Source: Escherichia coli (GTDB lineage Bacteria; Pseudomonadota; Gammaproteobacteria; Enterobacterales; Enterobacteriaceae). Taken from it: a stretch of DNA of 64,000 bases. The position numbers and the translations under genes were made by a program. Below the pieces are notes generated by a model that did no database searches, was not told the DNA's origin, and saw only the letters and a program-made list of their open reading frames with translations. Positions 14,702 to 63,481 of the stretch are shown in pieces; position 1 is the stretch's first letter, and each line of letters starts with the position of its first letter. The stretch lies in NCBI RefSeq assembly GCF_003334305.1, contig NZ_QOWS01000008.1. One strand, written 5' to 3'.

Positions 14702-15002
14702 TTTTGCTACTCCACTGCGTCAATTTTCCTGACAGAGTACGCGTACTAACCAAATCGCGCAACGGAAGGCGACCTGGGTCATGCTGAAGCGAGACACCAG
14801 GAGACACAAAGCGAAAGCTATGCTAAAACAGTCAGGATGCTACAGTAATACATTGATGTACTGCATGTATGCAAAGGACGTCACATTACCGTGCAGTACA
14901 GTTGATAGCCCCTTCCCAGGTAGCGGGAAGCATATTTCGGCAATCCAGAGACAGCGGCGTTATCTGGCTCTGGAGAAAGCTTATAACAGAGGATAACCGC
15001 GC

Positions 15003-21189: not shown

Positions 21190-21450
21190 TTAACAAACAG
21201 AGCAGAAAAAAAGCAAGTGAAGAGATTCTAAATAGCCTTCAAGAACAAGGCCATCCCTTTACCTAATTTTACGTATCTGAAATATATGTAACCTGACGAT
21301 CACTTTTTATTCCGTGATCAAAATCACCTCTTAAAATGCAATTTAGCAACCGATTGCAATAAAACATTTAAACAGATCACAAAATCACCTAAAATCGCCC
21401 GCTCGCGGCATATCCCGCTATGCCATTTTATTTTTGAACGCAGGCCAATC

Positions 21451-58966: not shown

Positions 58967-60691
58967 TCACTTACTTAAGTTTATTTCCAGCGTTTCACCA
59001 TCTACCGTCAGATCGCGCCACGCTTTCGGCCTCGTCCCCAGTTTTCCATCCTTCGCAGCTGTGAGTAATTTTTCTTTCGTTATTTCGTTCGGAAGTAAAC
59101 TCATATCAAGCGCGTCCCATTCTTTTCTGTCTGAGTCAAAGCCATAGACAATGACTCTGTCATCATTAAAAGCAAACAGGATCCGCTCCGCCTGACCATC
59201 ACTATTCAGATCTTGCTCGGCCAGGACGCAGGCGTCTTTTTCAATACAGGTCATCACGTTATAGCGATCCTGGATTAAGGCCGACCAGAATGTCGCATCC
59301 GGTTTAACAGAACCAGGGGCAATTAACACATTTTCGGCTAATACTTTTTCCGATACCTGTTCCTGAAGATGTTGCTCTCCATCTAACGCCATCAGCAGAT
59401 CCCGCGCGCGTTTCGGGTCTTTCATAAACCCGGCATCGCTTTTCAGCGACTCAAGCGCCGCACGTCCATAGCGACCGCTCTGTTCGAGCATGTAGATAGT
59501 TACCTGGTCTGGCGTGTTTTTGCCGCTCTGATAACGCGCCATATGACTGTTCACGCTAATACGCATACTATCCAGCACCGGCGAATTAAGAAGCACCAGT
59601 ATCACCAACACCAATAACGAAACCGCAAGGTTCACTTTGCCCTGAAGAACAACGGGATTTTGCCCTTTACGCCAGACGATGCTGACAAAATACCCCAGCG
59701 ACCACACCAGTAACACCAGCACCGCCAGCACGCCCTGCAAGCGGTCGACAGTCCAGCCGTACTGAGCGACCCGCAGCCATAACGCCCAGGCGGCGACGAA
59801 CACATACAGCGGAGCAACCAGCAAAGCGGTTTTAATCAGGCAACGCAACGGCCCTGTCCAGGGAAGTGACGCTTTTTGCGGATCGCGGACAATAGCCATT
59901 AAGATCAATTGCAAAAAGGCCAGCGTTAACAGCAACCCGGCGGCGGAGATGTGGCGAGAAATCGCGCTCAGGCCCGTAAACGGCAGAGTGATGATAAACA
60001 TCAGGGTTAGCAATGATACTAACGGCAGCAACCCCGTGGCGATTAACGTGAACAACTTTTGAATAGAGTCGATTAAACGTGACTGTGTTCGCGCAAGGAT
60101 CACCGCAAGCGCGGTAACCAGACCTAACGTGAGATAAATAAACCAGTCGGTTGCAAAAAAGAGCGTATTGAAAAACGTGATGCCAACAAGTTTAAACAAC
60201 TCACTCCACAGTAAAAGCACCAGCCACGTCAAGCCATTGGCGAGAAAAATCACCAGTAATATAAGTACGTTATGCCATACTGACTGGTAAAAATAGCGAT
60301 AGCGGCTACTGTCATTGCGGATGCGAAGGCTTTGTTGTATCCACGGTAGCAACAACATTGCCATCAACAGCAGATAGCAGCCAAAATCCCAAATCGCCTT
60401 TTCAGCTCTCCAGGGGTTCATGCCATCAGTTTGCCACTTCAACCAGCCGCTCATCCCCAGCGTGGCAATAAACACCAGCGCCAGCCATCCCCAAAGGCGC
60501 TTCTGTTTAAAAGAGATCACGGAGAAGAGTAAAACGGATGAAAACGCAACGGTCGCAGGCACGCCATAAACAATCCAACTGTGATTTTTTCCGGCAAGCC
60601 AGGCGATCAACAGGTAGCAAACCAGCCCCTGAAGTAATCCGGTAGCAATCATCCCCCAGCGTGTTGCCGGTGAAAGTTCAACGTTATCCAT
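58967..60691 (-). CDS. yhgE: Inner membrane protein YhgE (multi-pass membrane N-terminus, soluble C-terminal domain)
   Basis: 574-aa [64 protein letters not shown]... Confidence 0.88.
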
Positions 60692-60932
60692 GTTGGTTAT
60701 CCAGAATCAAAAGGTGGGTTAATTATCGCATCCGGGCAGTAGTATTTTGCTTTTTTCAGAAAATAATCAAAAAAAGTTAGCGTGGTGAATCGATACTTTA
60801 CCGATTGAATTTGCATCAATTTCATTAAGGAATGCGATTCCACTCACAATATTCCCGCCATATAAACCAAGATTTAACCTTTTGAGAACATTTTCCACAC
60901 CTAAAATGCTATTTCTGCGATAATAGCAACCG

Positions 60933-60954
60933 TTTCGTGACAGGAATCACGGAG
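60933..60954 (+). promoter_or_regulatory. Candidate CRP site in the pckA promoter region
   Basis: tttCGTGAcaggaaTCACGgag: TGTGA-N6-TCACA-like inverted repeat about 125 bp upstream of the pckA ATG. pckA is a classical catabolite-controlled gene. Confidence 0.45.
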
Positions 60955-61069
60955 TTTTTTGTCAAATATGAATTTCTCCAGATACGTAAATCTATGAGCC
61001 TTGTCGCGGTTAACACCCCCAAAAAGACTTTACTATTCAGGCAATACATATTGGCTAAGGAGCAGTGAA

Positions 61070-62692
61070 ATGCGCGTTAACAATGGTTTGACCCCGCAAG
61101 AACTCGAGGCTTATGGTATCAGTGACGTACATGATATCGTTTACAACCCAAGCTACGACCTGCTGTATCAGGAAGAGCTCGATCCGAGCCTGACAGGTTA
61201 TGAGCGCGGGGTGTTAACTAATCTGGGTGCCGTTGCCGTCGATACCGGGATCTTCACCGGTCGTTCACCAAAAGATAAGTATATCGTCCGTGACGATACC
61301 ACTCGCGATACTTTCTGGTGGGCAGACAAAGGCAAAGGTAAGAACGACAACAAACCTCTCTCTCCGGAAACCTGGCAGCATCTGAAAGGCCTGGTGACCA
61401 GGCAGCTTTCCGGCAAACGTCTGTTCGTTGTCGACGCTTTCTGTGGTGCGAACCCGGATACTCGTCTTTCCGTCCGTTTCATCACCGAAGTGGCCTGGCA
61501 GGCGCATTTTGTCAAAAACATGTTTATTCGCCCGAGCGATGAAGAGCTGGCAGGTTTCAAACCAGACTTTATCGTTATGAACGGCGCGAAGTGCACTAAC
61601 CCGCAGTGGAAAGAACAGGGTCTGAACTCCGAAAACTTCGTGGCGTTTAACCTGACCGAGCGCATGCAGCTGATTGGCGGCACCTGGTACGGCGGCGAAA
61701 TGAAGAAAGGGATGTTCTCGATGATGAACTACCTGCTGCCGCTGAAAGGTATCGCTTCTATGCACTGCTCCGCCAACGTTGGTGAGAAAGGCGATGTTGC
61801 GGTGTTCTTCGGCCTTTCCGGCACCGGTAAAACCACCCTTTCCACCGACCCGAAACGTCGCCTGATTGGCGATGACGAACACGGCTGGGACGATGACGGC
61901 GTGTTTAACTTCGAAGGCGGCTGCTACGCAAAAACTATCAAGCTGTCGAAAGAAGCGGAACCTGAAATCTACAACGCTATCCGTCGTGATGCGTTGCTGG
62001 AAAACGTCACCGTGCGTGAAGATGGCACTATCGACTTTGATGATGGTTCAAAAACCGAGAACACCCGCGTTTCTTATCCGATCTATCACATCGATAACAT
62101 CGTTAAGCCGGTTTCCAAAGCGGGTCACGCAACGAAAGTTATCTTCCTGACCGCAGACGCCTTTGGTGTGCTGCCGCCGGTTTCTCGTCTGACTGCCGAT
62201 CAAACCCAGTACCACTTCCTCTCTGGCTTCACCGCCAAACTGGCCGGTACTGAGCGTGGCATCACCGAACCGACACCAACCTTCTCCGCTTGCTTCGGCG
62301 CGGCGTTCCTGTCGCTGCACCCAACTCAGTACGCAGAAGTGCTGGTAAAACGTATGCAAGCGGCAGGTGCGCAGGCGTATCTGGTTAACACCGGCTGGAA
62401 CGGCACTGGAAAACGTATCTCGATTAAAGATACCCGCGCTATTATCGACGCCATCCTCAACGGTTCGCTGGATAACGCAGAAACTTTCACTCTGCCGATG
62501 TTTAACCTGGCGATCCCAACCGAACTGCCGGGCGTAGACACGAAGATTCTCGATCCGCGTAACACCTACGCTTCCCCGGAACAGTGGCAGGAAAAAGCCG
62601 AAACCCTGGCGAAACTGTTTATCGACAACTTTGATAAATACACCGACACCCCTGCGGGTGCTGCGCTGGTAGCGGCAGGTCCGAAGCTGTAA
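61070..62692 (+). CDS. pckA: Phosphoenolpyruvate carboxykinase (ATP)
   Basis: Conserved start [36 protein letters not shown] (540 aa), preceded by AAGGAG; kinase P-loop [11 protein letters not shown]. The ORF track adds 23 unsupported upstream codons. Confidence 0.97.
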
Positions 62693-62808: not shown

Positions 62809-63126
62809 ATGTTCACCTTTATTGAACTACAAGGATTTAGCAAACGCCGCCAGTTATTGTTACCTGATGATGAGTTCCGGGCTTTTCAGGAACTACTCAT
62901 TCAAGATCCCACTGCCGGTGACATTATCGCAGGCACAGGCAGTTTTAGAAAAATTCGCTGGAACCGTTCTGGAATGGGGAAACGGGGTGGCATTCGGATA
63001 ATTTATTACAACGTAACACGCAATGGCCGAATTTATCTGGCGTTGATTTATCCTAAAAATGAACAGGATGATTTAACAGAAGAACAAAGAAAGGCATTGA
63101 AACTATTGTCAGAGAAGCTGCTTTAA
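62809..63126 (+). CDS. RelE/ParE-superfamily toxin of the HigB-2 type (toxin-first TA module)
   Basis: 105-aa ORF MFTFIELQGFSKRRQLLLPDDEFRAFQELLIQDPTAGDIIAGTGSFRKIRWNRSGMGKRGGIRIIYYNVTRNGRIYLALIYPKNEQDDLTEEQRKALKLLSEKLL. The blocks G-GxxRKIR, GKRGG-RIIYY and YLLxIYxKNE--DL match my recollection of Vibrio HigB-2-like toxins. Lies upstream of an HTH antitoxin; GC about 40%. Confidence 0.75.
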   Translation: MFTFIELQGFSKRRQLLLPDDEFRAFQELLIQDPTAGDIIAGTGSFRKIRWNRSGMGKRGGIRIIYYNVTRNGRIYLALIYPKNEQDDLTEEQRKALKLLSEKLL

Positions 63127-63184
63127 TGTTGAAGCTCCACAAATTCCACCATGGTCGAAATGCCAACGGAGACATTGAAAACAG

Positions 63185-63481
63185 ATGAAAGATGAATTAT
63201 TTGCTGATCTTCTTGCCAGCGCAGAAGAAATGGTACGCATCGAAAAGGGTGAAGAAACGCCTGAACCAGAGCACGTCCATACTTTTAGCGAGATCGATGT
63301 AAAAGCGATCCGTGAAGCAACGGGTTTACGTCAGCAAGATTTTGCTGTCGCCGTAGGGGTAAGTTATGACCTGGTCAAAAGCTGGGAAACCAAACGCCGT
63401 CAGCCTACCGGAGCACCTCGAAAATTGCTCCTGCTTTTGCAAGCGAATCCTTTCATTATCAATCAATTGAAAACAATCTAA
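63185..63481 (+). CDS. XRE-family HTH antitoxin (HigA-2-like)
   Basis: 98-aa ORF MKDELFADLLASAEEMVRIEKGEETPEPEHVHTFSEIDVKAIREATGLRQQDFAVAVGVSYDLVKSWETKRRQPTGAPRKLLLLLQANPFIINQLKTI; HTH signature in LRQQDFAVAVGVSYDLVKSWE; 58 bp downstream of the toxin gene. Confidence 0.75.
   Translation: MKDELFADLLASAEEMVRIEKGEETPEPEHVHTFSEIDVKAIREATGLRQQDFAVAVGVSYDLVKSWETKRRQPTGAPRKLLLLLQANPFIINQLKTI

Follow-up and report, generated by a model that had tools for sequence, protein, structure and literature searches.

The inverted repeat found in front of pckA, in the 64,000-nucleotide stretch of Escherichia coli DNA analysed here (referred to as the window), is probably the second, weak CRP box of the E. coli pck gene that has already been catalogued, and not a new site. 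Its place in the sequence excludes this palindrome as an activating site at the distal pck promoter, P1, and fits repression only. Catabolite activation probably belongs to a stronger CRP box at 60833..60848 and not to the palindrome. The features discussed below are listed in Table 1.

Table 1. Features of the yhgE-pckA region, in window positions.
Feature	Position	Strand	Details
yhgE	ends at 60691	minus	
Cra (FruR)-type half-operator GGTGAATCGATACTTT	60784..60799	none	upstream of both CRP boxes
Stronger CRP box, core TGCGATTCCACTCACA = TGCGA-TTCCAC-TCACA	60830..60851	none	core 60833..60848, centre 60840.5; from the CRP matrix and the published Table S3
Extended -10 of distal pck promoter P1, TGcGATAAT	60916..60924	+	conserved in relatives
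Possible 5'-terminal hairpin of P1 RNA	60932..60960	+	stem 60933..60940/60947..60954, loop CAGGAA, then UUUUUU at 60955..60960
22-bp CRP-type site TTTCGTGACAGGAATCACGGAG (the palindrome)	60933..60954	none	core 60936..60951, centre 60943.5
Third, weak CRP-like box ATCTATGAGCCTTGTCGCGGTT	60990..61011	none	core 60993..61008, centre 61000.5; 6.45 bits
-10-like hexamer TACTAT of putative proximal promoter	61031..61036	+	TACAAT in most relatives
pckA (pck), ATP-dependent phosphoenolpyruvate carboxykinase	61070..62692	+	open reading frame, and RefSeq annotation of identical DNA

The 601 bp around the palindrome share 95-100% identity with all of the 5,426 complete E. coli genomes compared (5,426/5,426), and the matching genomes annotate the flanking genes as yhgE and pckA. 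Strain MG1655 is identical to the window strain across the entire pck promoter and leader, and its coordinates are obtained by adding 3,471,748 to those of the window, which places its pckA gene at 3532818..3534440. The start codon of pckA is the ATG at 61070 and not at 61071, and the spacer between yhgE and pckA is 378 bp long and AT-rich. On the other side of pckA, the gap to envZ contains two small plus-strand ORFs (62809..63481) that K-12 does not carry, the gap there being 75 bp. The first encodes 105 aa with a match to the RelE-toxin Pfam family (PF06296, E = 1e-5) and the second a 98-aa NadS-family helix-turn-helix protein, and from their sequences the two look like a type II toxin-antitoxin-like insert.

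The core of the palindrome, CGTGACAGGAATCACG, reads CGTGA-CAGGAA-TCACG and is a perfect 5+5 inverted repeat of 16 bp around a spacer of exactly 6 bp, located 119-134 nt before the pckA ATG. It agrees with the CRP core TGTGA-N6-TCACA at 8 of 10 positions and has all four GTGA/TCAC positions in each arm, among them the G:C pairs at core positions 2 and 4 and their mirror positions that particularly characterise CRP sites, the sole mismatch per arm being the outermost base. The original prediction had described an inverted repeat with one deviation per half-site, situated in the AT-rich region upstream of pckA, and both the sequence and its placement within the 378-bp spacer agree with that description.

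The same element is present in published data. Shimada et al. 2011 (PLoS One, PMC3105977) identified pck as a new CRP target by Genomic SELEX and observed lower pck promoter activity in a crp mutant. Their Table S3 gives two CRP boxes in the yhgE<>pck spacer, TGCGATTCCACTCACA and CGTGATTCCTGTCACG, approximately 100 bp apart, and CGTGATTCCTGTCACG is the reverse complement of the palindrome, an identical 16-mer. The proposal that this is a CRP site is supported by this listing; the boxes in that study were assigned by a motif finder in 500-bp windows around the chip peaks and not by footprinting (PMC3105977). With regard to function, a passage of a review of 2023 (PMC10187061) describes repression of pck by CAP/CRP bound downstream of the promoter, citing Nakano et al. 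2014, and describes this repression for 'very high' CRP levels.

The position of the palindrome relative to P1 agrees with that description. The extended -10 element, as TGnCATAAT or TGnGATAAT, is kept in 11 of the 14 Enterobacteriaceae genomes aligned, and also in nearly all of 52 distinct metagenome alleles. From its location we infer that P1 transcription starts near 60931, which is 7 nt after the -10 hexamer and 139 nt before the ATG. In older work the pck start is likewise said to lie 139 nt before the ATG. Counted from the last base of the extended -10, the centre of the palindrome is 19.5 nt downstream and therefore at about +13.5 from this start, and the centre of the upstream box, 103 bp away, is at about -90.5. 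These values reproduce those of Nakano 2014 (FEMS Microbiol Lett 355:93), in whose abstract box 1 of pck is reportedly at -90.5 and box 2 at +13.5. The spacing to the extended -10 means that the palindrome is in the initially transcribed leader of P1. Activating CRP sites are centred near -61.5 to -92.5 (class I) or near -41.5 (class II), and sites that overlap the start or follow it repress, so that CRP at the palindrome could not activate P1 in either way. The original prediction had taken the site to account for the known, positive catabolite control of pckA, and this part does not stand, since the site is downstream of the conserved extended -10. It had also named the transcription start as a check, and with the start deduced here the outcome is divided: the site is incompatible with activation and compatible with repression. 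No pck entry was found in the supplements of Kim 2012 and no nearby coordinate in the tables of Adams 2021 when these were searched for the pck start site.

The upstream box scores 15.35 bits with the CRP matrix, which is rank 1 of the window, and has one mismatch to the TGTGA-N6-TCACA core. Only 0.55% of dinucleotide-preserving shuffles of the spacer contain a match of at least 15.35 bits, and the box is conserved in most of the Enterobacteriaceae sampled. On the basis of its score and its distance from P1 it is likely to be the activating, class I type site of this promoter. Further upstream, GGTGAATCGATACTTT is a candidate operator half-site of Cra (FruR) by its resemblance to the consensus, and the TGAATCGAT motif within it is kept in Escherichia, Citrobacter, Enterobacter, Kluyvera and Pseudocitrobacter.

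The matrix used for these scores is a symmetrised 22-bp log-odds matrix built from 60 distinct curated sites (Shimada et al. 2011, Table S4 part 3), a training set that consists mostly of well-matching RegulonDB sites and from which pck is absent. The palindrome scores 9.48 bits, approximately the 30th percentile of the training sites under leave-one-out scoring. A matrix scan had been suggested with the original prediction; its result is favourable in that the palindrome ranks 19 of 63,979 window positions, and unfavourable in that a score of 9.48 bits is moderate and is reached or exceeded in 28.5% of cases when the 378-bp AT-rich spacer is shuffled with its dinucleotides preserved (P about 0.29). 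Two copies of the exact pattern CGTGA-N6-TCACG are present in the window, where 0.08 would be expected, and TGTGA-N6-TCACA with up to 2 mismatches occurs 31 times against 25.1 expected, a count reached in 15 of 100 shuffles. The right flank, GAG, and the spacer are both unfavourable for CRP and count against reading the palindrome as a CRP site. The curated crp autoregulatory box (14867..14888), which is outside the training set, scores only 10.07 bits, showing that genuine CRP sites can score as low as the palindrome. The matrix score by itself does not establish the palindrome as a CRP site; it is a plausible weak site and not a significant one, and its standing rests on the published binding-screen data and on conservation. 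The matrix also finds the known boxes of the crp/yhfA (14867..14888) and ppiA (21310..21384) regulatory regions, and the window therefore takes in the crp gene neighbourhood.

The palindrome is identical in MG1655, in all E. coli alleles examined, including the most divergent, and in E. albertii. E. coli and E. albertii share the whole leader (60927..61069, 143 nt) without a single difference and the adjacent 180 nt upstream are approximately 20% diverged, roughly one base in five, which indicates, at the level of sequence, strong constraint on the pck leader as a whole. The arms are kept across Escherichia, Citrobacter, Enterobacter, Kluyvera, Pseudocitrobacter and many metagenome alleles, and the usual form in other Enterobacteriaceae is GTGAC-AGGA-GTCAC. 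A palindrome-like motif was found in 45 related alleles, and in these its centre falls 18.5-19.5 nt past the -10; in related alleles the arms and the T-run that follows them are nearly invariant and the flanks vary. The spacer has changed between intact arms in several lineages: one (L083) keeps GTGA/TCAC around CCCATG, two others (L141 and L010) have the spacers TGCGAA and TGCGAT and score 13.8-15.3 bits, and Ent. Bisph1 has CCATAC. Constant arms with a changed spacer in four or more lineages are the pattern expected of a palindrome contacted by a dimer.

Conservation does not follow CRP recognition throughout. The E. cloacae group allele, TGTGACTGGAGTCGCA, keeps the palindrome with a CRP score of -0.3 bits, and another allele (L121) carries GTTAC, with the critical C of the CRP arm lost. 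In the Citrobacter alleles, as in these two, CRP recognition is weaker and pairing is retained through G-U. One group (L156) has a different, unrelated hairpin, UUACGGGUACCUGUAA, at the same place and without the CRP arms. Half-site conservation therefore gives a mixed picture, with the arms kept in most alleles and the spacer free in four lineages, and the remaining alleles either scoring poorly or having the element replaced. Furthermore, the AGGA of the spacer is more conserved than CRP binding would need. As the palindrome is kept despite poor CRP scores, CRP affinity alone does not explain its conservation. CRP-like matches near -119 to -131 in Yersinia and Serratia were considered as counterparts and rejected, as they overlap a CATAA(T/C)-type hexamer and are not orthologous to the palindrome.

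Within the spacer, conservation is highest in the third CRP-like box, ATCTATGAGCCTTGTCGCGGTT, and not in the palindrome. The distance from its centre to the -10-like hexamer is constant at 28.5-30.5 nt (30.5 in E. coli), and both the sequence in between and the spacing to the ATG differ among relatives. The box would be centred 42.5 nt before a putative start at about 61043, which is class II geometry, and at -40.5 to -42.5 in relatives. The same spacing recurs in Citrobacter, Enterobacter, Yersinia, Serratia, Pectobacterium, Photorhabdus, Rahnella, Budvicia and Arsenophonus. In Pasteurellaceae the proximal boxes score 13-21 bits and the hexamer is mostly TAGAAT (TAAACT in one), and Vibrionaceae and Aeromonas have the same arrangement with the hexamer TAGCAT. 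This distribution suggests that box and hexamer represent an ancestral class II CRP-dependent promoter of pckA, which has degenerated in E. coli. Succinate-producing strains have been given the published up-mutation pck*, a G to A change at -64 relative to the ATG. It corresponds to window position 61006, where it changes TCGCG to TCACG and would raise the score of the proximal box from 6.45 to 10.09 bits; this may explain the pck* phenotype. A Term-seq 3' end has been mapped in the pck leader at MG1655 3532767 (window 61019), 51 nt before the ORF and just past the conserved block (Adams et al. 2021). A 24-codon frame in the same region, from ATG 60994 to the TGA at 61066..61068, ends one base before the pckA ATG and was considered as a leader peptide. 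This was rejected, as the frame starts with TTG in several genera, ranges from 7 to approximately 24 codons and is shifted by a 1-nt indel between E. coli and Enterobacter, and these comparisons make a conserved leader peptide improbable.

The arrangement of sites suggests how the palindrome most likely acts. P1 has the extended -10, with the strong CRP box at -90.5 and the Cra-type site further up. At moderate levels of cAMP-CRP the strong upstream box alone would be occupied and P1 would be activated; at high levels the weak downstream box would fill too, and a CRP dimer on +3..+24, by bending the DNA there, would hinder promoter escape or early elongation, so that pck expression would be capped. 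We infer both this roadblock and its physiological weight. The sequence, score, position relative to the -10 and conservation were determined in this analysis, and the binding screen and the repression are taken from the literature. Because the repression is described as needing 'very high' CRP, the role of the downstream box in cells is uncertain.

Two other readings of the palindrome as DNA were weighed against this limiting role. CRP bound to it could activate pckA, whether at P1 or in a tandem class III type arrangement in which the palindrome would be the upstream member and the proximal box (60993..61008) the other. The fall in pck promoter activity in the crp mutant (Shimada 2011, PMC3105977) would agree with this, and with a real proximal promoter at about 61043 the centre of the palindrome would be near -99.5 from it, at 55-59 bp from the proximal box in related alleles, mostly 56-57. 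However, class I or II activation of P1 is impossible from a position downstream of its -10, and the combination of -99.5 with a spacing of 57 bp (approximately 5.4 helical turns) puts the two boxes on roughly opposite faces of the helix, which does not suggest cooperative activation. The proximal promoter is moreover itself putative, and the passage of the review mentioned above (PMC10187061) describes repression, not activation, from the downstream site. An activating role is therefore considered very unlikely. Alternatively, the palindrome could be due to chance and without function, having been picked up by a motif search as the neighbour of a strong box in a 500-bp SELEX fragment. The frequency of equally good matrix matches in shuffled spacers, the chance-level number of core matches with up to 2 mismatches in the window and the assignment of the published boxes by motif finder (PMC3105977) all allow for this. 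It is nevertheless hard to reconcile with arms and a distance to the -10 that are kept across five genera and many metagenome alleles while the flanks vary, with a palindrome that is invariant in E. coli and E. albertii, or with the functional repression from the downstream site that the same passage of the review reports (PMC10187061), and we regard it, too, as very unlikely.

A different reading is that the palindrome is conserved mainly for a role in RNA, as a stem-loop 2 nt from the P1 5' end that would present an AGGA loop and be followed by a U-run. Such a structure could shield the transcript against 5'-end-dependent decay, offer a CsrA-type GGA site or act as a weak promoter-proximal terminator or pause, and any of these would be compatible with CRP binding to the same DNA. 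A scan for terminator-like structures flags 60932..60955 followed by TTTTTTG (9 pairs counting G-U, 3 G-C, 6 U). The predicted folding energy of the hairpin is -7.3 kcal/mol in E. coli (z = -1.41), -10.4 kcal/mol for the common allele and -16.7 kcal/mol for E. cloacae (z = -3.2), the E. cloacae allele having ccc/ggg in place of the ttt/gag flanks and a U-A pair in place of C-G, with pairing retained. In the 45-allele alignment changes on both sides of the stem number 7 cells against 2.9 +/- 1.4 in shuffles, 3 of 500 of which reach 7, and the one-sided changes that retain a standard pair are all G-U wobbles. The near-invariant T-run 3' of the stem, the leader shared by E. coli and E. albertii and the substitution of another hairpin in the L156 group also favour this reading. 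With respect to CsrA, the sequence has the features of a CsrA hairpin, with its CAGGAA loop on a 5-8 bp stem at +3..+24 of the presumed P1 transcript and an AAGGAG at 61056..61061, and CsrA represses pckA genetically, as a pckA'-'lacZ fusion is de-repressed, with higher expression, in a csrA mutant (PMC3856055).

Several results argue against a role in RNA. RNAalifold predicts no consensus pair from the 45-allele alignment, the mean folding z over the 45 alleles is -1.08 with the stem abutting the U-run in only 38%, and shuffled sequences fold as well as the full leader (z = 0.09). The same whole-leader fold contains a long-range pairing of 60936..60944 with 61000..61008, which was discarded as a candidate in view of this z value and because its 3' block is also conserved where the palindrome is absent. 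The GGA is lost in several lineages that retain the arms. Neither pck nor pckA has an entry in 13 supplementary files of a CLIP-seq study of E. coli CsrA; b3403 appears there only in enrichment lists, this set of files may not be complete, and expression of pck in rich medium is low. In the Term-seq data of Adams 2021 the tables contain no RNA 3' end near the U-run (MG1655 35326xx-35327xx), in a type of library that RNAs of approximately 30 nt would escape, and Rfam gave no meaningful match. Overall, a role of the palindrome in RNA is possible and weakly supported by these sequence comparisons, and as the main cause of its conservation it appears rather unlikely. The palindrome could also serve two uses, as a weak CRP operator at +13.5 and as an RNA hairpin that is bound by CsrA or sets stability or early termination, with high CRP shifting transcription to the ancestral proximal class-II-type promoter. 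This combination we consider quite unlikely; were it true, one 16-nt element would couple cAMP-CRP and Csr control of gluconeogenesis.

Oxaloacetate is committed to gluconeogenesis by pck, a gene whose promoter is in wide use, and widely mutated, in succinate-production strains. Telling an activating from a limiting CRP-type box matters both for interpreting catabolite control and for engineering. What novelty is left lies in the possible RNA-level role of the palindrome and in the conserved proximal box with its -10.

Compared with known RNA elements, the pck hairpin shares with 5'-terminal stabilising stem-loops, such as that of the ompA leader, and with weak terminators a stem within approximately 2 nt of the presumed 5' end that is followed by 4-6 U, but its stability is low and its covariation weak. 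With CsrA/RsmA hairpins it has in common a 5-bp stem, an AGGA loop and a ribosome-binding-site AAGGAG approximately 115 nt downstream; it differs from them in having no CLIP-seq peak in the files examined and in a GGA that is not present in all of the lineages that keep the arms. The two GGA motifs of the pck leader are also further apart than in typical bridged CsrA sites. Among CRP sites, the autoregulatory box of crp (+41.5) is like the palindrome in having a moderate score (10.07 against 9.48 bits) and in being located in the transcribed region of a gene that is down-regulated. At crp, bound CRP is said to work by activating a divergent promoter, whereas for the pck box at +13.5 a direct block of escape or elongation would be the simpler reading. 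The CRP box 2 of E. coli K-12 pck (Shimada 2011; Nakano 2014) is the same 16 bp in the same spacer, 103 bp from TGCGATTCCACTCACA, and the element itself is no different from the palindrome; the two settings differ in that the window strain is not K-12 and carries the extra two-gene insert between pckA and envZ.
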